Below, in pieces: positions 1,745 through 29,236 of a DNA stretch of 64,000 bases. Below the pieces are notes generated by a model. That model was given only the letters and a program-made list of their open reading frames with translations, was not told the DNA's origin and did no database searches. The stretch comes from an uncultured Alphaproteobacteria bacterium (GTDB taxonomy: Bacteria; Pseudomonadota; Alphaproteobacteria; RF32; CAG-239), in contig CALXTW010000001.1 in NCBI GenBank assembly GCA_944391515.1, positions 1,378 to 65,377 on the forward strand, written 5' to 3'. Made by a program: the position numbers and the translations under genes. Each line of letters opens with the position of its first letter. The first letter of the stretch is position 1.

Positions 1745-2965
1745 TTGGACAATACTGCCGAAATATTAAGTTTTGCTAATCAGATAAAGTCAGGTGTTAC
1801 CCGCCTGACTTTAACTGATTTCAGAAACTATGCGCATTTACGCATTAACGCAGACCTAGCACCGATTGTTATTACCGGTGATAACGGTGTCGGCAAAACA
1901 AATATTTTGGAAGCTATCTCTTTTTTAACACCGGGAAGAGGCATGCGGAGTGCAAAACTCTCCGATATTAGACGTATTAGCCCTTGCTTGGTTGATGATG
2001 AATATGCTCCCACCGCTATCAGCAATACCAGCTGGGCCGTATCGGCAACCGTTCGCAATAATGATGATGATATCGAAATCGGGACGGCTGTTGAAAAATC
2101 CATTCGTGACGATGATGACGACACACGGAGCTTTGACCGAAGAATCGTTAAAATAGATGGCATTAAAACAAACTCTCAAGCTGATTTAGGGCGTTATATT
2201 TCTGCTATTTGGCTAACCCCGCAAATGGACAGGCTGTTTCGTGGCGGTTCACAACCCAGAAGAAGTTTTTTGGACCGATTGGTTTATGCTTTTGATGTGG
2301 AACATGCAAAACGCACATCAAACTTTGAGCATTTGTATAAACAGTGGTATCAGCTCCTAAAAAGCGGGCAACACGATAACTTTTGGCTGAGCTCTTTAGA
2401 AGAAGAAATGGCCGGACTAGGTGTGGCAATAGCCGCGGCAAGACGTGAACAAATTGCTAAGCTCAACACTTTTATTGAACATGAGCCAGATGATGTGTTC
2501 CCTAATGTTTTGCTTGAGCTAGACGGCATGGTTGAAAAAATGTTGGATAAAATGCCGGCGCTTGATGCCGAAGAAGCTTATTGCGCCAACCTAAAAGCAC
2601 AAAGGCGAAATGTTCTATATAATGACTTTGTTGACGGCGTTAATCGAACAGATTTTAAGGTTTATTTCAAGAAGAAAAGAATGCCGGCCGAACTTTGCTC
2701 AACCGGAGAGCAAAAGTCTTTGCTTATCAGCATTATTTTAGCACAAACCAAGTGCCAAACCTTGGACAAAGGATTTGCTCCCGTATTGTTGCTTGATGAG
2801 GTTGTGGCACATCTTGATGACATAAAACGTGAGGCTTTGCTTGAAAAAATTCGTGATTTGAGAGTGCAAGCATGGATTACCTCAACAAATCCTAATTTAT
2901 TTACCTCCCTTAAAGATGAAGCACAGTTTTGGCAAGTCAAAAACAACTCGATTATTGAGATGTAA
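1745..2965 (+). CDS. recF: DNA replication and repair protein RecF (TTG start, with an acidic insertion)
   Basis: Walker A ITGDNGVGKTNILEAI. C-terminal signature region LLLDEVVAHLD. Position after dnaN. About 30 extra acidic residues (NNDDDIEIG...RDDDDDTRSFD). Confidence 0.88.
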   Translation: MDNTAEILSFANQIKSGVTRLTLTDFRNYAHLRINADLAPIVITGDNGVGKTNILEAISFLTPGRGMRSAKLSDIRRISPCLVDDEYAPTAISNTSWAVSATVRNNDDDIEIGTAVEKSIRDDDDDTRSFDRRIVKIDGIKTNSQADLGRYISAIWLTPQMDRLFRGGSQPRRSFLDRLVYAFDVEHAKRTSNFEHLYKQWYQLLKSGQHDNFWLSSLEEEMAGLGVAIAAARREQIAKLNTFIEHEPDDVFPNVLLELDGMVEKMLDKMPALDAEEAYCANLKAQRRNVLYNDFVDGVNRTDFKVYFKKKRMPAELCSTGEQKSLLISIILAQTKCQTLDKGFAPVLLLDEVVAHLDDIKREALLEKIRDLRVQAWITSTNPNLFTSLKDEAQFWQVKNNSIIEM

Positions 2966-2996
2966 ATAATAAAAACTCCCGCTTATTAACTCAAAA

Positions 2997-3025
2997 TTGA
3001 CACATTCGGGTTATTGTAATATTAT
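2997..3025 (+). promoter_or_regulatory. Sigma70-like promoter TTGACA-17-TATTAT upstream of the 3078 ORF/PTS operon
   Basis: Exact -35 TTGACA (2997-3002) and -10 TATTAT (3020-3025) with a 17-nt spacer. Confidence 0.45.
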
Positions 3026-3077
3026 GTTTGCAATGTAGGCTTTAAGATATTAAAGCGCTTTTAATAGGATAAATACC

Positions 3078-3494
3078 ATGGAAAACCAATATTACACTCT
3101 GATTGAAAAACAAGATTTTTATGAAATCATTGAAAACAAATTCGGCGAACTGGCAATTTTTATTGATGCCAGAGAAGGCGCTCCGGTTAATCCGGTTCTC
3201 GAATTTGACGGCAAAAAAACCGCTTTGCTCAAAAGAGATGACCGCTTAGCCGTTAAGCTCGACAATATTGATGAAGAAACCAAAGGTCCTTTGGCTGAAG
3301 CTGAGTTTGTGATGATTGTGGAATTACAGGGTAAAATGGTTGAACGCACATACGGTGTTCCGGTTGAAAATGTTGAAGAAATTACCTTTAAGGGCAAACA
3401 AACCCGTGCTGACGAATTGGTTCGTGCCAAGAGCAGAGAAGATGTTATTAACTCTTTTGGCGCCGTTAAAATTTGGTCTTGCGGTGATAAATAG
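3078..3494 (+). CDS. Hypothetical protein (138 aa) co-oriented with the PTS EIIA/HPr genes
   Basis: Intact ORF with an RBS-like context. No recognisable motif. Confidence 0.5.
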   Translation: MENQYYTLIEKQDFYEIIENKFGELAIFIDAREGAPVNPVLEFDGKKTALLKRDDRLAVKLDNIDEETKGPLAEAEFVMIVELQGKMVERTYGVPVENVEEITFKGKQTRADELVRAKSREDVINSFGAVKIWSCGDK

Positions 3495-6085: not shown

Positions 6086-6901
6086 ATGGCTTCGGAAAAG
6101 ACTTTCAAGCTCGCAACCTGGAACGTAAATTCCATTCGCATTCGTTTGGAATTGTTAAAGGTTTTGGTTGAAAAAGAAAATCCCGATATTATTTGCATTC
6201 AAGAAGTTAAGGCCAAAAGAGAAGATTTTCCGTTTGAGGAAATTGAGGCTTTGGGGTATAAAAATATTGCTCTGTACAGTATGCCCGGCTACAACGGCGT
6301 GGCTATTTTATCCAAGACACATTTGGAAGGAATCGAGCAAAAAGATTGGGTAGGCAAAAGCGATGCCAGACATATTATTGCCCGCGTGTTTGATGATTTG
6401 GAAATTAACAATATCTATATTCCCGCCGGTGGCGACATTCCCGACCCGATTGAAAATATTTCTTTTGCACACAAACTGACCTTTATGGACGATGTGGCTG
6501 AATATTGGGAAACACACAAAGACGATTATGCTAAAAGAAAAATGATTGTTTGCGGCGATTTTAACGTGGCTCCTTTAGAAAACGATGTTTGGAATCATAA
6601 GCAAATGCTCAAAATCGTTTCGCATACACCGGTAGAAGTCTCTCGCTTAAACCGCTTGCAAAATTCTTTAGATTTTGTAGATACCGTACGTTTTTTTCAT
6701 CCCGAACCTGAAAAAATATTTACTTGGTGGAGTTATCGAAACCCTAATTGGCAGACAAACAATAAAGGGCGTAGGCTTGACCATATTTGGGTTTCACCTT
6801 GCTTAAAGGATAGAATCGTCTCGGTTAAAATTTGCAAATTTATGAGAGAGCAAGAAAGACCATCTGACCACGTTCCGGTGATTGTGGAAATAAAAAAATA
6901 A
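6086..6901 (+). CDS. xthA: Exodeoxyribonuclease III / AP endonuclease
   Basis: KLATWNVNSIR, ICIQEVK, GDFNVAP, DHVPV motifs of the EEP-family ExoIII. Confidence 0.85.
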   Translation: MASEKTFKLATWNVNSIRIRLELLKVLVEKENPDIICIQEVKAKREDFPFEEIEALGYKNIALYSMPGYNGVAILSKTHLEGIEQKDWVGKSDARHIIARVFDDLEINNIYIPAGGDIPDPIENISFAHKLTFMDDVAEYWETHKDDYAKRKMIVCGDFNVAPLENDVWNHKQMLKIVSHTPVEVSRLNRLQNSLDFVDTVRFFHPEPEKIFTWWSYRNPNWQTNNKGRRLDHIWVSPCLKDRIVSVKICKFMREQERPSDHVPVIVEIKK

Positions 6902-6978
6902 CTTCCTTTTATAATTGTGATTGACCTAAGAAAAAACTCTCTTTACACTCTTGATAAACATAAAAAAGGTCAGAGTTG

Positions 6979-8109
6979 ATGAAATTTAAGTTTTCAATAT
7001 TTTGTTTTGCCATGCTTGCCTTGAATGCCTCTCAAGCAAAAGCTGAAGAATCACAATTTATTTATGAGGGAAGAATCGATGCCTTGTATGGCTATATTAT
7101 GCCCTCAAACCGCTACAAGCATAATTCGCCCAGAGACAAAACCATTTACAACCTTAGCCTTAATCTGGGCTGGGAAAAAGAGTTTAATGACGTGCGCAAA
7201 CTCGGGCTTTATGCCGACCTTAATGCCGGAATTAACCGCGATATGTATAATTATAACAACGGCAACTGGGGGCAAGAGTTATACGCAATTTATGATGATG
7301 TGTTCGGGCGGATTATGTTGGGTGAAACCTATAACGCGGCCTATCAATTTCAAGTGGGAGCTCCGCGCGTGGGTGCCATGGGGGTTAATGATTCCGATAT
7401 TGTTAACTTTATGACGAATCCAAACTGGATTAGAGATAAGCACACGACAAGTTTTCAGACGCTCAATTCTACCTCTATTAACACGGATGGTGTTGCTCCG
7501 AAAATCACTTACATCACTCCTGAAATTTACAACACGATGTTTGGTTTTTCGTATGCGCCGGATAGTTATGACCGCCGCGGATTGGTCAATAAATTTGCCA
7601 GATATGAAGATGATTCCGCCTATGTCTTTTCTTTATATACCGAACAAGACCTCGGGTTTGCGGATATGTCGGCCGCGTTGGGTTATGGTATTTTTCACCA
7701 AGATGATAAAGAGTTTTCAGCCGGTTTGAGTTTTTATAAAGGCGGTTGGACACTTGGGGCTAGTTATCGTAAATCTTATGTGGACGGCGGAGACTATTCG
7801 ATTACGGAAGTCTCAAATAACCCGAGACTGCCCGATTTGTTTGATAACTACCGTGAGGGACAGGCATGGGATATTGGAATCGGATATGAAATCGGGCCTT
7901 ACAGCGTGGCTTTATCATATTTGCACAGCGAGGCTGAAAATACCGATAACCAAGATGATATTTTTATGCTGTCGCAACAATACCAATTCAACAAATATGT
8001 TGATTTGTACTTAATCGGGGCGCAAGTCAACTTTAGAGGCGCAAATAAAGATATTGAAAATAACAACAAAGGTTACAGCGTTGTGGCCGGTGTCGGTTTG
8101 CACTTTTAA
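6979..8109 (+). CDS. Outer-membrane beta-barrel protein, putative porin
   Basis: Signal peptide MKFKFSIFCFAMLALNASQA. Alternating amphipathic Tyr/Gly-rich strands. C-terminal ...GVGLHF ending in Phe, typical of an OMP. Confidence 0.5.
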   Translation: MKFKFSIFCFAMLALNASQAKAEESQFIYEGRIDALYGYIMPSNRYKHNSPRDKTIYNLSLNLGWEKEFNDVRKLGLYADLNAGINRDMYNYNNGNWGQELYAIYDDVFGRIMLGETYNAAYQFQVGAPRVGAMGVNDSDIVNFMTNPNWIRDKHTTSFQTLNSTSINTDGVAPKITYITPEIYNTMFGFSYAPDSYDRRGLVNKFARYEDDSAYVFSLYTEQDLGFADMSAALGYGIFHQDDKEFSAGLSFYKGGWTLGASYRKSYVDGGDYSITEVSNNPRLPDLFDNYREGQAWDIGIGYEIGPYSVALSYLHSEAENTDNQDDIFMLSQQYQFNKYVDLYLIGAQVNFRGANKDIENNNKGYSVVAGVGLHF

Positions 8110-12110: not shown

Positions 12111-14591
<2,481 letters not shown>

Positions 14592-14610
14592 TCCGCTTAA
14601 AAAGCACAAA

Positions 14611-14639
14611 AAAGCCGCTCTTCGTGAGCGGTTTTTTTG
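14611..14639 (+). terminator. Rho-independent terminator after gyrB
   Basis: aaagccgctc ttcgtg agcggttt followed by a T-run. Confidence 0.55.
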
Positions 14640-14789
14640 TGATGGATTTAAGGCTTATTTTGTATTGCAAATTTCAGGATATTCCCAGTTTCCCGACAAG
14701 AGGAAACATTCTTGAGGAGAAAAATCAAATTTGCACTCATTTGCGTTAATGTTCCAAACCTTTTGATTTAAATCATCTATTTTTTATGG

Positions 14790-14818
14790 TTGCAAATTTT
14801 TTTATCTCAATTTATGAT
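14790..14818 (+). promoter_or_regulatory. Sigma70-like promoter TTGCAA-17-TATGAT driving the structured RNA
   Basis: -35 TTGCAA 14790-14795, 17-nt spacer, -10 TATGAT 14813-14818. Confidence 0.45.
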
Positions 14819-14825
14819 GTTTTTT

Positions 14826-15020
14826 GCAAACGGGGTGGTAACCGTTTGTGGAGACTCAAAACTCCAGATAGTAAACCAGCCCTCCTTCGGGGAGGAATAC
14901 CACTCTCTCTTTTGAGGGGTGGATGTAATAAGCTTTCTCTTCGGAGGAGGTCGAATAAGTCCGACACTACTATCTGTGTTTTGAGCCCCTCACCTTTAAT
15001 TTTTTAGAGGTGATTTTTTT
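14826..15020 (+). ncRNA. Candidate structured RNA (sRNA or regulatory leader) with alternative pairings and an intrinsic terminator
   Basis: Local hairpins caaacgg/ccgtttg and ccctcc-UUCG-ggagg. Three mutually complementary segments: ctcaaaac (14853), ttttgagggg (14909) and gttttgagcccctcacc (14979). The last overlaps the terminator stem tcacct...aggtga+T7 (about 14989-15020). Confidence 0.4.
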
Positions 15021-15129
15021 ACCTAAATATTTGGTTCTTTGATACGGAAAATTTGTCTTGTTTCATTGAGCCTTAAGCGGCGGTGTTGGACTGAGACCGG
15101 CACTGCCCACAAATAGGGAGTGTAAAATT

Positions 15130-15576
15130 ATGTCTGCAAACAGAGGAAGATTGCCTGACGGCTCTGCAAACCCCATTGACAAGCATATCGGAGCGCAAAT
15201 CAAAAGACGGCGTTTGATGTTGGGGCTTTCTCAACAAGAATTGGCCGACCAGCTTGGATTAACCTTTCAACAAGTGCAAAAATATGAGCAGGGTGCTAAC
15301 CGTGTTAATGGTAGCCGGATGTGGGATATTTGCCAAGTATTGCAAATTGAGCCCAATTTTTTGTTTGAGGGGTTGGATAAAGACTCTCTTGATAACAGCC
15401 CCAGAATGTTAAAATGCTCAATCGAAATAGCATATGGCAGAGATGATATTGTTTTGCAAGACCCGCTTTCTCGCCCCGAAACCTTAGAGTTGGTTACGGC
15501 TTACTACAAAATTGACCCGATTTTAAGAGTGCTCTTTTTGCAAGTCATTAAGTGTTGTGCCACCAGAGCGCATTAA
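15130..15576 (+). CDS. XRE-family helix-turn-helix transcriptional regulator (alphaproteobacterial type)
   Basis: LGLSQQELADQLGLTFQQVQKYEQGANRV is an HTH_XRE signature. RBS agggag. Paralog of 58319..58774. Confidence 0.75.
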   Translation: MSANRGRLPDGSANPIDKHIGAQIKRRRLMLGLSQQELADQLGLTFQQVQKYEQGANRVNGSRMWDICQVLQIEPNFLFEGLDKDSLDNSPRMLKCSIEIAYGRDDIVLQDPLSRPETLELVTAYYKIDPILRVLFLQVIKCCATRAH

Positions 15577-18338
15577 TGCGCTTGGGCCCAGTTGTCGCCG
15601 ATACCGACTTCGGCAATAAAGGGAACATCATAATTCACCACGTTTTGCATGGTTTCTTTTATCATTTCTGAGACGGCGGTAACCTCTTCTTCGGGTGCTT
15701 CAAACACCAATTCATCATGCACTTGTAAGAGCATTTTGGTTTTGAAATTTCCTTGTTGCAATTTTTTAAATACAGCGTTCATTGCCATTTTGATAATATC
15801 GGCCGCACCGCCTTGTATCGGTGCATTTATGGCCGCACGTTCAGCGTTCATGGAAACACGCTTATTCTTATCGTTTATGCCATTTACTGTGCATTTGCGC
15901 CCAAATGGCGTTAGGACATAGCCGTTTTTGTGAGCAAAGGCTTTGGTGTCTTCCATAAACTGTTTTATCTCAGGCATTTCACGAAAATAAGCATCAATAT
16001 AAGCCTTGGCCTCTTCGGTGGAGACATCAATCTGCTTGGCCAAGCCATACTGCGAAATGCCGTAAATAATACCAAAATTTATGGCCTTGGCATGGCGGCG
16101 TTGATTGGGTGTGACCTCACTCAAAGGCACGCCAAAAACTCTTGAAGCGGTTGAAGCATGAATATCTTTGTTTTCGGCAAAGGCTTGTTTGAGCCCGTGG
16201 ACATTGGCCACCACCGCCATGAGCCGAAGTTCAACCTGAGAATAGTCTGCCGCCACAATCTTACAGCCCTTGGAAGCAACAAAACTTTCGCGAATTTTTT
16301 TGCCCTCTTCACTGCGAATAGGAATATTTTGCAAATTCGGGTTATTGGACGCCAGACGTCCGGTTGAGGTGGTGATTTGATTATAGGTGGTGTGGACGCG
16401 ATCTGCCTTATCCATTTGCTCGGTTAGGGCATCGGTATAAGTGGATTTGAGTTTGCTCAAGGCGCGCCAATCCAAAATGCGGGCGGCGAGTTCATTGCCC
16501 TCGGCGGCTAAGTCCTCAAGCACCTCGGCTCCGGTTTGCCATGCGCCGGTCGCCGTTTTTTTGCCCTTGGCACCTAATTTACCAAACAAAATATCGCCGA
16601 TTTGCTTGGGCGAGGCGATGTTAAACTCCTCTCCGGCAAGGTGATAAATTTGTTGCTCGTAGTCTTGCATTTTGGTAGCAAAATCAGCACTCAAGCGGCG
16701 TAAATTCTCACGATTGACTTTTATGCCCGCACTTTCCATAGTTTGCAAAATACGAACCAAGGGGCGGTCAAGGTCTTCATAAACACTCATTTGGTGCTCG
16801 GAAAACAGGCGTGGTTTTAAGACTTGGTGCAAACGCAAGGTAAAGTCTGCGTCCTCGGCGGCATAAGCCAAGGCTTTGTCTAATTCAACCTTATCAAAAG
16901 TGATTTTGTTTTTGCCTGAGCCGCAAACCTCCTCATAAGCTATCATTTGGTGGTCAAAATAGGTTTTGGCTAATTCATCGAGCCCATGGCCGTGTTCGGT
17001 ACCATCTAAGACATAAGAAATAACTGCCGTATCGTCATAAGGCGCAATTAGGCAATCAGCGCCTAAAACTTGTTGCATAAAGTGCATGTCAAATTTGATG
17101 TTATGGCCGATTTTGAGTATCGACTTGCCCTCAAACAAGGGTTTGAGATATTTGGCGATAATCTCATAGCTTAATTGTTGCGGGGCATTTGTTTGATTAG
17201 AACCAAAAAGGTCTAAATTTGACTTTTCATCACTCTTGAAATGGTTGAGCGGAACATAGCAAGCCTCTCCGGCAGAAGTCGCCATAGAAAAGCCCACAAT
17301 CTTATCAAACTGCGGATTGAGCCCATTGGTTTCGGTATCAAAGGCAAAATAGCCGGTTTGCTTGATTTTTTCTGCCCAGAGCTTTAAGGTCTTTTCATCT
17401 TGGACAAGCTGATAATTGGCTTTTATCTCTTGAGGCTGCGCTTTAAATACAGTGTTCTCACCTTCTTCGGAACAGCGTTCAGAAACCCATTTTTCAACCC
17501 TAGGACGAATGGAATTAAACCCATAGCGCGAGACAAAATCCATGATGGTACCAAGGTCTGGTTTTTGGCAAGGAAAATCCTCAATCGGCTGGGTGGTGGG
17601 AACATCGGCTTTAAGGGTTACCAATTGGAGTGAGATTTCTGCTTGGTCCTTATTTGCTATCAAGGTTTCGCGGCGTTTGTTTTGTTTGATTTCTTCAGCG
17701 CGAGCCAAAACCTCACCTAGGGAGCCAAATTGATTAATGAGTTCGGCAGCTGTTTTGAGCCCAATGCCCGGAACGCCTGGAATATTATCGGTGCTGTCAC
17801 CGGCAAGCGCCTGAACATCAACCACGCGATTGGGATATACACCAAACTTTTCACGCACGTCTTCAGGGGTGAAGTATTTGTCTTTCATCGGGTCAAAAAA
17901 CTCAACACCGGGGCGTATTAACTGCATCAAATCTTTATCGGCCGAAACAATCGTGACCTCATAGCCTTTTTGCAGGGATTGGGCAGCATAGGTAGCGATT
18001 AGGTCGTCAGCCTCATAGCCTTCCATATCCAAAAAGTGCAAATTAAGCGCTTTTACCGCTTGGTGAATAATCTCAAACTGAGGGATTAAATCCTCGGGAA
18101 TTTCTTTTCTGGTGCCTTTGTAATCAGGAAAAATATCGTTGCGGAAATTTTGCCTTTTGGCATCAAACAACACCAGCCAATAGTCGCTTTTGATTTTTTG
18201 CGTCAGGCGCATAAACATATTGGTAAAGCCATAAACCGCGTTTACAGGTGTTCCCTCTGGACTGGTCAAAGGTGGAAGGGCGTAAAATGCTCGGAAAATG
18301 TATCCAGAGCCATCAATTAGGCATACTTTTTTGGTCAT
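15573..18338 (-). CDS. polA: DNA polymerase I
   Basis: 5'-3' exo N-terminus (VCLIDGSGYIFRAFYA). 3'-5' exo (FAFDTETNGL). Polymerase motifs RRHAKAINFGIIYG and LLQVHDELVFE. 921 aa. Confidence 0.95.
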   Translation of the reverse strand: MTKKVCLIDGSGYIFRAFYALPPLTSPEGTPVNAVYGFTNMFMRLTQKIKSDYWLVLFDAKRQNFRNDIFPDYKGTRKEIPEDLIPQFEIIHQAVKALNLHFLDMEGYEADDLIATYAAQSLQKGYEVTIVSADKDLMQLIRPGVEFFDPMKDKYFTPEDVREKFGVYPNRVVDVQALAGDSTDNIPGVPGIGLKTAAELINQFGSLGEVLARAEEIKQNKRRETLIANKDQAEISLQLVTLKADVPTTQPIEDFPCQKPDLGTIMDFVSRYGFNSIRPRVEKWVSERCSEEGENTVFKAQPQEIKANYQLVQDEKTLKLWAEKIKQTGYFAFDTETNGLNPQFDKIVGFSMATSAGEACYVPLNHFKSDEKSNLDLFGSNQTNAPQQLSYEIIAKYLKPLFEGKSILKIGHNIKFDMHFMQQVLGADCLIAPYDDTAVISYVLDGTEHGHGLDELAKTYFDHQMIAYEEVCGSGKNKITFDKVELDKALAYAAEDADFTLRLHQVLKPRLFSEHQMSVYEDLDRPLVRILQTMESAGIKVNRENLRRLSADFATKMQDYEQQIYHLAGEEFNIASPKQIGDILFGKLGAKGKKTATGAWQTGAEVLEDLAAEGNELAARILDWRALSKLKSTYTDALTEQMDKADRVHTTYNQITTSTGRLASNNPNLQNIPIRSEEGKKIRESFVASKGCKIVAADYSQVELRLMAVVANVHGLKQAFAENKDIHASTASRVFGVPLSEVTPNQRRHAKAINFGIIYGISQYGLAKQIDVSTEEAKAYIDAYFREMPEIKQFMEDTKAFAHKNGYVLTPFGRKCTVNGINDKNKRVSMNAERAAINAPIQGGAADIIKMAMNAVFKKLQQGNFKTKMLLQVHDELVFEAPEEEVTAVSEMIKETMQNVVNYDVPFIAEVGIGDNWAQAH
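17442..17455 (+). repeat. Copy of the 14-bp dispersed motif TTTAAATACAGTGT (inside polA)
   Basis: Exact match. Encodes NTVFKA on the coding (minus) strand. Confidence 0.8.
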
Positions 18339-29117: not shown

Positions 29118-29137
29118 TAAATTATCTTCTTTAATTT

Positions 29138-29236
29138 GAGGTGGAGGACGAATGACCTTAACCTTATTCGTTACGGCTGCTTCCTTCCGGACCTGACCGG
29201 GTTGGCGAAGGGCTAACCCAACGTCCTCCTTTAGAC
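29138..29236 (-). ncRNA. ffs: Signal recognition particle RNA (4.5S/SRP RNA)
   Basis: Minus-strand sequence ACCCGGUCAGGUCCGGAAGGAAGCAGCC matches the universally conserved SRP RNA domain IV motif. It is enclosed by a long closing stem (ggaggacg/cgtcctcc). A local GC island. The classic position immediately upstream of dnaX. Confidence 0.75.

Follow-up and report, generated by a model that had tools for sequence, protein, structure and literature searches.

A conserved, covarying RNA between promoter and terminator upstream of an XRE regulator gene: a probable leader with a core resembling sRNA-Xcc1

Introduction

Why should a bacterial chromosome carry a short and heavily structured RNA, with a promoter at one end and an intrinsic terminator at the other, directly 5' of the gene that encodes a DNA-binding regulator? 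The question is raised by a 539-nt gap between gyrB (12150-14591, + strand) and a gene for an XRE regulator (15130-15576, + strand) in a 64,000-nt stretch of contig CALXTW010000001.1 from an uncultured alphaproteobacterium. This whole stretch is called the window here, and positions without a locus number refer to it. A preliminary description of positions 14790-15020, made from the letters alone, proposed a promoter-to-terminator RNA with alternative pairings that might be a riboswitch or attenuator or else an independent small RNA (sRNA), perhaps a 6S-like one, and named an Rfam scan and covariation in relatives as means of checking this. We have followed up these proposals by comparative analysis of the RNA, which we call E1 (14826-15020, ~195 nt, with its own promoter and intrinsic terminator).

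Two known RNA families bear on the answer. The family sRNA-Xcc1 (RF02221) has been in Rfam since 2012 and is annotated in integrons, genomic islands and Stx and APSE phages; the functions offered for it in the literature covered (virulence, Hfq-dependent targets) are guesses. It lies 5' of symE in Xanthomonas integron cassettes and 5' of an ORF6N-domain gene in APSE phages, occurs as five tandem copies in a Xylella island, and has one copy beside c4 and isrK. The second family is c4, whose sites are named a1/b1 and a2/b2, and in the heteroimmunity of phages P1 and P7 specificity changes through coordinated changes of loop and site. According to PMC8198154, which cites Citron & Schuster 1990, the leader of c4-icd-ant encodes the c4 RNA of phage P1, and this RNA shuts the operon down by antisense pairing. 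The c4 and c4-a1b1 motifs are listed by Weinberg et al. 2010 (PMC2864571).

Results

A discrete RNA with conserved, covarying helices

A promoter scan places a sigma-70-type promoter at the position given in the preliminary description (Table 1), and transcription is predicted to start at about 14825-14826, some 7 nt past the TATGAT box. This layout is kept in homologous loci, which are numbered with the prefix L: boxes resembling TTGCAA/TTGACA-N17-TATAAT stand at an equal distance from the 5' hairpin, H1, in L007, L010, L102, L106, L112 and L051. At the other end, the canonical intrinsic terminator with its run of seven T residues is present as previously described. The region between them is enriched in G+C, as had also been claimed (0.451 for 14826-15020, compared with 0.348 for the upstream intergenic flank and 0.397 for the whole window). 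The minimum free energy (MFE) of the RNA (14826-15021) is about -85.1 kcal/mol, compared with -52.8 ± 4.7 kcal/mol for shuffled sequences (z = -6.9), and none of 200 shuffles matches it.

Parts of the RNA fold as units. H1 forms when it is folded alone, and the isolated 5' part folds as H1 followed by a second hairpin, SLs. The core segment, a three-way junction of helices P1, P2 with H4, and P3 that makes up the 3' two-thirds of the RNA, has exactly this junction as its MFE structure when folded alone (-31 kcal/mol, z = -3.65), and the terminator as an isolated hairpin gives -11.9 kcal/mol (z = -6.0). The two local hairpins noticed earlier are present, but there are more, namely H1, SLs, H2, H3, H4 and P3. 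One of the two had been read as a UUCG tetraloop hairpin; this hairpin, H2, exists but has a pentaloop (CCUCC-UUCGG-GGAGG), and the genuine UUCG tetraloop is that of H4. Hairpins equivalent to H2 are present in homologues in variable register.

The XRE protein of the window has 286 homologues, and those that are named are mostly alphaproteobacterial, including Rhodospirillales and metagenome-assembled genomes (MAGs) from gut and rumen. When genome representatives were scanned with an XRE profile, 80 loci were obtained, most of them without E1 and with a promoter directly 5' of XRE; E1 is also absent at the XRE homologues P0014, P0015 and P0016 (L096, L012 and L009). E1 is carried, 5' of orthologues or paralogues of XRE, by L007/L008, L010, L011, L112, L102/L104/L109/L116, L106/L111/L115 and, as divergent copies in rumen and gut MAGs, by L054, L057 and L051. 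A DNA pattern that makes no use of synteny returned 18 stretches from metagenome contigs, eight of which are true homologues (L102, L104, L106, L109, L111, L112, L115 and L116). Altogether there are 11 distinct full-length versions of E1 including that of the window, a small sample drawn mostly from related gut alphaproteobacteria; the other ten come from gut and rumen alphaproteobacterial MAGs and metagenomes. By synteny and by the synteny-free pattern alike, an XRE-type gene lies 3' of the RNA at every locus that is long enough. The XRE proteins of L007/L008 are 59% identical to that of the window, and those of L010 and L011 about 58-62%. The gene 5' of the RNA varies, being gyrB in the window and recX in L007/L008.

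Several metagenome assemblies, as well as MAG GCA_949300435.1, contain the same sequence. The same-species loci L003/L004 are 88% identical to the window over the RNA, and nearly all differences between the window and L003 fall into two patches about 100 nt apart, where AGAUAGUA/UACUAUCU is replaced by CGUGAAC/GUUCACG in a wholesale compensatory swap. These two patches are M5', a single-stranded segment following SLs, and the loop of P3.

Such compensatory changes are found throughout the RNA. In a base-by-base table of 10-11 versions, the number of distinct complementary versions is 9 for H1, 6 for SLs (stem variants include GGUG/CACU and GGAA/UUCC), 8 for the pairing of segment S1 with junction strand J3/1, 10 for that of M5' with the P3 loop, 9 for H3, 5 for P1, 6 each for P2, H4 and P3, and 7 for the terminator. 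Each of these helices is fully complementary in every version, except that SLs is absent in L007. S1:J3/1 and M5':P3-loop are found in all 11 versions, the former being weak (3 bp) in L007. When eight full-length RNAs are aligned with MAFFT, without fitting to the structure, 96.7% of the cells of H1, S1:J3/1 and P1 are paired, with a covariation score of 0.262 vs 0.109 (0 of 500 shuffles); in H1, both partners change in two pairs and the paired fraction of cells is 98.4%. The MAFFT alignments A4 and A5 are out of register in H2, P2, H4, P3 and the terminator, so a covariance model (CM) built from a well-aligned subset was used together with the base-by-base table; A9, the only trivially alignable set, misaligns H2. 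This model, R1, was made from six well-aligned E1 cores only (alignment A6) and recovers all cores, among them that of the window with 54.3 bits over 14913-15020 (E = 4e-11, a rough value since calibration was shortened, as are all E-values from R1). A 22-row core alignment of P1, P2, H4, P3 and the terminator, which includes two phage Xcc1 elements, has 96.2% of cells paired, and in 21 of its 26 pairs both partners have changed. In its controls, 0 of 500 shuffles reach the observed value and slid partners are 44-60% paired; P3 has 100% of cells paired and four of its five pairs covary. Pairing counts from the core alignment, A7, are inflated because it was fitted to the structure of the model.

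Helices are thus kept by compensatory changes across the 11 versions, and the covariation that the preliminary description had looked to relatives for is present. We regard it as practically certain that the promoter-to-terminator RNA in front of the XRE regulator, as proposed there, is real, conserved and covarying, and that it is tied to XRE genes.

Competing pairings reach the terminator

The 5' arm of E1 consists of S1, which the loop of SLs presents, followed by M5', and it complements J3/1 together with the whole P3 loop of the core. Duplexes between arm and core have a mean of -18.6 kcal/mol for cognate pairs and -10.1 kcal/mol for non-cognate pairs. The M helix (M5':P3-loop) alone gives -5.4 to -11.9 kcal/mol for cognate pairs vs about -3 for non-cognate ones, and exists in at least seven versions that are not interchangeable. 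M5' pairs with all of the P3 loop, over 6-8 nt in most versions and 13 nt in L003, and often reaches into the closing pairs of P3, so P3 and the M helix cannot coexist. Since P3 and SLs themselves covary, both alternative states appear to have been selected.

There are three competitions: S1:J3/1 with M5':P3-loop against SLs with P3, H3 against P1, and P1 against the base of the terminator. The preliminary description had proposed alternative pairing among three segments, S1, S2 (the 5' strand of P1) and S3. The segments and their pairings are real, but S1 and S2 pair with adjacent halves of S3 rather than with identical bases and are therefore not strictly mutually exclusive. An upstream C-rich arm able to pair with the 5' strand of P1 is present in 10 of 10 versions; the resulting helix, H3, sequesters part of that strand and overlaps P1a by 1-6 nt in the nine versions scored. 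P1b in turn overlaps the 5' arm of the terminator by 2-4 nt in 10 of 10 versions. In the window, the shared bases are UCA, which form the last three nucleotides of the 3' strand of P1 and the first three of the terminator stem, in agreement with the overlap between S3 and the terminator that had been pointed out earlier. The window terminator stem is worth -12.1 kcal/mol in full and -6.2 kcal/mol once P1 keeps UCA; in L007, L010 and L112, only 4-5 bp of the terminator would remain with P1 formed. As for the anti-terminator and terminator logic of the preliminary description, competing pairings that touch the terminator are conserved in each version checked, but nothing shows a small-molecule riboswitch.

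The predicted energies for the window are -64.4 kcal/mol for the rod, in which the 5' arm is zipped onto the core, with a full terminator, -58.5 kcal/mol for the junction with a truncated terminator, and -85.2 kcal/mol for the MFE structure, which also uses a swap between H2 and H4. We rejected the H2:H4 pairing because it is not kept in the divergent members L051, L054 and L057.

One could suppose that E1 is a static structured 5' untranslated region (UTR) or transcript stabiliser with a leaky terminator, and that the alternative pairings are by-products of CCUCC/GGAGG repeats. These repeats are numerous and permit many pairings, to the point that the MFE structure joins H2 to H4, and the rod with its terminator is clearly the most stable arrangement. 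The helices that exclude one another (P3 and SLs on one side, M5':P3-loop and S1:J3/1 on the other) are, however, each kept by compensatory changes across lineages, and conservation extends to the overlaps that involve the terminator and P1a. The H2/H4 swap is lacking in the divergent members L051, L054 and L057. We therefore consider a static element very improbable.

The RNA as a leader of the XRE gene

Promoter scans of the window, L001 and L051 find no sigma-70-like promoter on the + strand between terminator and XRE. The distance from the U-tract to the XRE ATG is only 21 nt in L054, 27 nt in L051 and 36 nt in L057; a spacer of this length has no room for a promoter and a 5' UTR, so the XRE mRNA must arise by read-through at these three loci. 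XRE homologues without the RNA have a promoter directly 5' of XRE, at the corresponding place. From this arrangement of sequence signals, E1 is probably a leader with an attenuator, lying between the only promoter and XRE.

Attenuation through a leader peptide was rejected. The open reading frame (ORF) at 14786-15007 (73 aa), dismissed as spurious in the preliminary description, begins 5' of the -35 box, and stop codons interrupt it in L003, which is of the same species, as well as in L007 and L010. Its lack of conservation excludes a leader peptide, and no other ORF here is conserved either.

We also rejected repression of XRE translation by E1 in the manner of c4. The XRE start region holds no significant complement of the P3 loop or J3/1 (the share of shuffled targets that match or exceed the pairing of the real one is 0.18 or higher at all loci), the one exception being the P3 loop of L051 (-9.5 kcal/mol, share 0.045). 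Likewise, no consistent loop-complementary site was found in the spacers, and the spacer can be identical where the loops differ.

Alternatively, E1 might act mainly in trans, as an independent antisense sRNA of the type of c4 and Xcc1, with the terminated RNA of ~195 nt as the functional product. The P3 loop and J3/1 would then pair with distant mRNAs, the 5' arm would be a self-inhibitory or maturation element, and proximity to XRE would reflect co-regulation (for example, XRE controlling the sRNA promoter) and not attenuation. That the M helix is hypervariable among strains is what would be expected of a determinant of trans specificity, and core-only copies without the 5' arm do exist. A strong promoter and a strong terminator delimit a discrete RNA, its core is related to Xcc1 elements whose phage loops match the translation start of the downstream gene (see below), and L007-type loci have a promoter-like site between E1 and XRE. 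Yet no convincing target emerged. The XRE start region offers none, and when the 64-kb window was searched, no sense-strand site paired better with the P3 loop plus J3/1 than the 5' arm in cis (-21.5 kcal/mol). The best non-self site, at 7472 (-19.0 kcal/mol), lies inside an ORF and was rejected as a target, being judged, without shuffling, to be within chance expectation. Moreover, the predicted ground state already has the candidate seeds engaged in cis pairing, and in L051, L054 and L057 there is no space for a separate XRE promoter, so that the RNA is necessarily an XRE leader there. On balance, we consider a mainly trans-acting role unlikely.

The core resembles sRNA-Xcc1

The Rfam scan foreseen in the preliminary description gives no family at its gathering score over E1, and a permissive scan of 14550-15200 (651 nt, E <= 10) gives no match to RF02221 and no credible one to 6S RNA, a riboswitch or an sRNA. 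Below threshold, however, RF02221 matches the E1 cores of L010 and L011 (27.6 and 27.7 bits), and it matches a neighbouring Xcc1-like element, E2, at 46.3 bits in L001 and 34.4 bits in L011, the gathering score being 53 bits; a scan of L106, L111, L112, L054 and L057 gave no match to it. The alignments of L010 and L011 to the Rfam consensus have identical motif columns. In the opposite direction, R1 detects Xcc1 elements of phages in searches of 0.5 Mb: that of Aaphi23 (L118 2499-2598) at 32.4 bits (E = 2e-5) and that of Stx phage P13374 (L119 2488-2588) at 28.4 bits (E = 2e-4).

The likeness extends to details of structure. E1 and sRNA-Xcc1 share a three-way junction with a GC-rich closing stem P1, a P3 hairpin and the J3/1 sequence UUUUGAG. 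In both, P2 has two A-rich internal loops (AAUACAAUA/GAAUAA in Xcc1; GUAAUAAG or GAAUAUAAG/CGAAUAA in E1), an ACC-initiated tail is the 5' arm of the next hairpin, and an upstream segment is complementary to the P3 loop and J3/1. Both stand 5' of a gene for a DNA-binding regulator, and tandem copies of both occur. For the conserved unpaired motifs and the ACC-initiated tail of Xcc1, the window has GUAAUAAG, UCGAAUAAG, UUUUGAG and CCCCUC-ACCUUU. In many members P1 is followed by a tail resembling ACC; L051, L054 and L057 have none, and mimicry of an RNase P substrate by way of this tail was rejected for that reason.

The differences are also clear. The window has no RF02221 match and no relative reaches 53 bits. 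E1 has H1, SLs, H2 and H3 fused directly to the core, and the hairpin formed by its tail is complete as an intrinsic terminator, U-tract included. E1 stands 110 nt (21-350 nt at other loci) from the start codon, compared with about 40 nt for Xcc1, and finds no complement where the gene 3' of it starts. The end of the window core is separated from the XRE ATG by 138 nt that include the terminator, and the core thus lacks the feature of Xcc1 elements that lie about 40 nt from a start codon with a P3 loop complementing the start region, a feature derived here from five phages and not a curated one. The hosts of sRNA-Xcc1 are phages, integrons and islands of gammaproteobacteria, whereas those of E1 are chromosomes of gut alphaproteobacteria. 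The E1 core is likely to be a divergent member or a distant relative of the Xcc1 lineage. Being related to sRNA-Xcc1 although no Rfam family reaches its threshold, it is not a wholly new class. A phage origin of E1 itself was rejected, the DNA pattern having 0 matches in viral contigs.

The same scans bear on 6S RNA, which the preliminary description had mentioned as compatible in size. A rod that mimics an open promoter and sequesters RNA polymerase would suit the length of ~195 nt and the long-range closing helix of the MFE prediction, both of which recall RF00013. But that family has no match at E <= 10 on the 651 nt scanned, covariation backs a three-way junction with a 5' arm and not a central bubble, the 5' end forms a hairpin of its own, and the 3' end is a terminator. 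E1 also varies among strains of one species and is linked to XRE in all lineages. A 6S-like function is almost certainly not the explanation.

Loop complements in phage Xcc1 elements

A blastn search with the Rfam consensus as query located Xcc1 elements of phages. The element lies 39-50 nt 5' of an antirepressor-type gene in five phages (Aaphi23, Stx phages P13374 and F004, Pasteurella phage Pmp3 and Moraxella phage Mcat16), and this gene is annotated only as a hypothetical protein in one of the five; the element of L122 was annotated "sRNA-Xcc1" by its depositors. In all five, the P3 loop has a perfect complement of 6-8 nt located 60-116 nt 5' of the core and a second complement at -8 to -18 of the antirepressor ATG, in the Shine-Dalgarno (SD) and start region. 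J3/1 shows the same complementarity to two sites in most of the five, the upstream site lacking in L122. With the P3 loop and J3/1 considered jointly, the upstream site falls at a distance of 60-130 nt. The loop sequences differ from phage to phage and stay complementary nonetheless (CAAACAG, AAGUAG, CUUCAAAG, CCAAAAA and CAGAAAA). This arrangement matches the c4-icd-ant logic of phage P1. In that part of the literature mentioning Xcc1 which was covered, we found no description of c4-like logic for it.

These complements also bear on the idea that the junction is an aptamer for a metabolite or protein, binding of which would stabilise P1 and block the terminator, as in an ON riboswitch or a protein-dependent antiterminator. 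Such an aptamer would account for variable, covarying stems around invariant unpaired loops (GAUAUAAG/GUAAUAAG, CGAAUAA and J3/1 UUUUGAG), for the overlap of P1 with the terminator in all versions, and for the anti-P1 helix H3. However, base pairing explains J3/1 and the P3 loop: their partners are the 5' arm and, in the case of phages, the start region of ant. The P3 loop is also hypervariable, unlike a ligand pocket. The associated genes (XRE, antirepressors, symE and an ORF6N-domain gene) are regulators on mobile elements and not metabolic genes, and so give no hint of a ligand. We think an aptamer improbable.

Discussion

Of the explanations considered, the one that we somewhat favour, as being a little better than evenly supported, is that E1 is a leader RNA of XRE whose two conformers set termination against read-through, an attenuation in the style of c4 and Xcc1. 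Comparative sequence data show the RNA itself and its conservation, each of its helices, the pairings that compete, its association with XRE and its likeness to Xcc1. The change in termination between conformers, the direction of the effect and its trigger belong to the model that follows.

Most transcripts would end at the intrinsic terminator at 15013-15020 and yield the RNA of ~195 nt, and XRE mRNA would come only from polymerases that read through. In the open state, SLs and P3 would stand as hairpins and the junction would be closed by P1, which would take 2-4 nt from the base of the terminator and weaken it. In the rod state, the 5' arm would be zipped onto the core, H3 could hold the 5' strand of P1, and the terminator would be complete. 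The balance between the open and rod states would then set the amount of XRE. The input would be an RNA-RNA pairing rather than a metabolite, either co-transcriptional or with a second RNA that bears equal loops or an equal arm; judging from c4 and the phage Xcc1 elements, this kind of input seems the most likely.

In its plan, E1 resembles the platform of known attenuators and riboswitches: promoter, structured leader, intrinsic terminator and gene follow one another with no promoter in between, P1 competes for the base of the terminator, and H3 competes for P1. It differs from them in having no leader peptide and no known ligand or binding protein, in the shortness of the overlap with the terminator (2-4 nt), and in an extra competitor, the hypervariable pairing of loop to arm that is typical of antisense systems. 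Like c4 (RF01695, phages P1 and P7), E1 is a structured RNA whose sequence belongs to the leader of the operon that it would control. Both have two exposed segments that complement two upstream sites on the same transcript (as in a1/b1), and both have coordinated changes of loop and site that alter specificity. Unlike c4, E1 has no sequence or CM similarity to RF01695 (no match in any Rfam scan) and lacks sites at the ribosome-binding site like a2/b2, having an intrinsic terminator instead.

Several points weigh against attenuation by E1. The rod with a complete terminator is clearly the most stable arrangement of the window RNA, and this modelled ground state could mean constitutive termination. 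The overlap of 2-4 nt between P1 and the terminator could be merely that of two abutting, coaxially stacked helices. In lineages with a long E2 spacer, a promoter-like site occurs within that spacer (L007 2731-2759), and E1 may therefore be an independent transcription unit there. The 5' arm is dispensable at least in L008, a natural variant without S1 and M5'. Unlike phage Xcc1, E1 has loops without a significant complement at the translation start of XRE, and L003 has exactly the spacer and start region of the window although the M helices of the two differ. The core alignment was fitted to the model, with the inflation of pairing counts that this brings, and the 11 distinct full-length versions are few and mostly from related gut alphaproteobacteria. 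It is from sequence that we infer transcript ends, termination efficiency and the effect of conformation.

A wider proposal is that E1 and the whole sRNA-Xcc1 family form one widespread class of programmable c4-like switches, and that the XRE loci carry a domesticated phage immunity module. The junction may expose two address segments, the P3 loop and J3/1, and the partner of these may be an "anti-antisense" arm that lies upstream, or else the start of translation of the regulator or the terminator before it. The M5':P3-loop pair, which is fully replaced between two strains of one species with nearly identical flanks, may be an immunity-like specificity code under diversifying selection, and the chromosomal module may respond in trans to cognate prophage RNAs or to duplicated core-only copies. 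This proposal is tentative, and as a whole we hold it to be rather doubtful. The comparative picture offers concrete, testable mechanisms for Xcc1-type elements of both phages and chromosomes. Were these confirmed, the orphan sRNA-Xcc1 family would become a class of c4-like riboregulators, to which a multi-state attenuator with a swappable specificity helix would be added; this would help in understanding lysogeny and the control of regulators in gut bacteria and would supply a designable RNA part.

Table 1. Positions of E1, its parts and related elements (window coordinates unless a locus is named).
Feature	Position	Strand	Sequence or remark
Promoter, sigma-70-type	14790..14818	+	TTGCAA 14790-14795, 17-nt spacer, TATGAT 14813-14818; promoter scan
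H1, 5' hairpin	14826..14849	+	GCAAACGG 14826-14833 / CCGUUUGU 14842-14849, loop GGUGGUAA
SLs hairpin	14850..14865	+	GGAG(ACUCAAAA)CUCC; loop presents S1
S1	14855-14862	+	CUCAAAAC; pairs with GUUUUGAG (S3a) 14978-14985
M5'	14866..14873	+	AGAUAGUA, single-stranded; complements entire P3 loop 14968-14975
H2 hairpin	14881..14895	+	CCUCC-UUCGG-GGAGG, pentaloop; read from sequence and fold
H3 (anti-P1)	14900..14922	+	C-rich arm CCACUC 14900-14905 / GGGUGG 14917-14922; predicted in local fold
Xcc1-like three-way-junction core	14913..14992	+	P1, P2, H4, P3; 3' two-thirds of RNA
P1 (S2 is its 5' strand)	14913-14919 / 14986-14992	+	UGAGGGG / CCCCUCA
P2	14921-14924 / 14959-14962	+	GGAU / GUCC
Core internal loops	within 14913..14992	+	GUAAUAAG and UCGAAUAA
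H4	14933-14950	+	CUUUCUC-UUCG-GAGGAGG, genuine C(UUCG)G tetraloop
P3	14963-14967 / 14976-14980	+	GACAC / GUGUU; loop UACUAUCU 14968-14975
J3/1	within 14913..14992	+	UUGAG (UUUUGAG motif); S3a is GUUUUGAG 14978-14985
Intrinsic terminator	14990..15020	+	Stem-loop 14990-15013, then U7; DNA TCACCTTTAA-TTTT-TTAGAGGTGA, RNA UCACCUUUAA-UUUU-UUAGAGGUGA
Spacer, terminator to XRE start codon	15021..15129	+	110 nt; modest structure, fold z = -1.9
XRE regulator gene	15130..15576	+	148 aa, Cro/C1-type; Pfam HTH_3 E = 1.3e-12
E2	L001 2695-3000 (core 2865-2956); L007 2840-2960; L010; L011 289-380; L097; L102		
Core-only/E2 tandem loci	L102 (-) about 6776-7050; L104 (-) 1134-1400; L106 3900-4192; L111 (-) 2842-3100		
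Phage loci	L118 2330-2640; L119 2340-2630; L120 1000-1330; L121 1000-1330; L122 1000-1350		

Further elements at these loci

The second Xcc1-like element, E2, directly precedes the XRE start in one strain of the same species and in several lineages; the window lacks it and has an unrelated spacer of 110 nt in its place. A UCCUU resembling an anti-SD sequence lies in the P3 loop of E2, AUCCUUGUGG, and the complement of this loop, CCACAAGG, is found upstream. The same-species loci L001/L005 have about 300 nt extra between the terminator and XRE. In gut-metagenome loci, an extra core-only copy of E1 and an extra copy of E2 stand just 5' of the E1 promoter, and these tandem arrays recall the five tandem Xcc1 copies reported from a Xylella genomic island. 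L008 2465-2676 is a natural deletion variant of the L007-type RNA in which most of H1, S1 and M5' is gone and H2, the core and the terminator are kept. A motif like S3a recurs 3' of the terminator (GTTTCATTGAGCC at 15063-15075 of the window and CAGTTTTGAGCTCTG at L001 2699-2713), and could be an alternative partner for S1 in read-through transcripts.

Upstream of E1, a bidirectional terminator-like hairpin, AAAAAAGCCGCTCTTCGTGAGCGGTTTTTTT, lies at 14603-14640, directly 3' of the gyrB stop codon; it is the cause of weak leader and RNAI look-alikes in the permissive Rfam scan. L001 and L003-L005 have an extra ORF of 140 aa upstream. This strain-variable, hydrophobic ORF lies between gyrB and the RNA promoter (L001 1984-2406, - strand; L003 2174-2596, - strand), is missing from the window and has no Pfam match. 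Beyond XRE, the convergent gene is polA (15573..18338, - strand), the ORF end of which overlaps the XRE stop codon at 15573-15576. A tRNA or tmRNA was rejected for the region of E1, where ARAGORN gave no match. Incidental neighbours elsewhere are a 3' fragment of tmRNA at the contig end of L011 (1403-1456, - strand) and an rpsB leader in L106 (1085-1185, - strand; 47.2 bits). The sole gathering-level Rfam match of the window is the bacterial small SRP (4.5S) RNA at 29137-29232 (- strand), which scores 58.9 bits.

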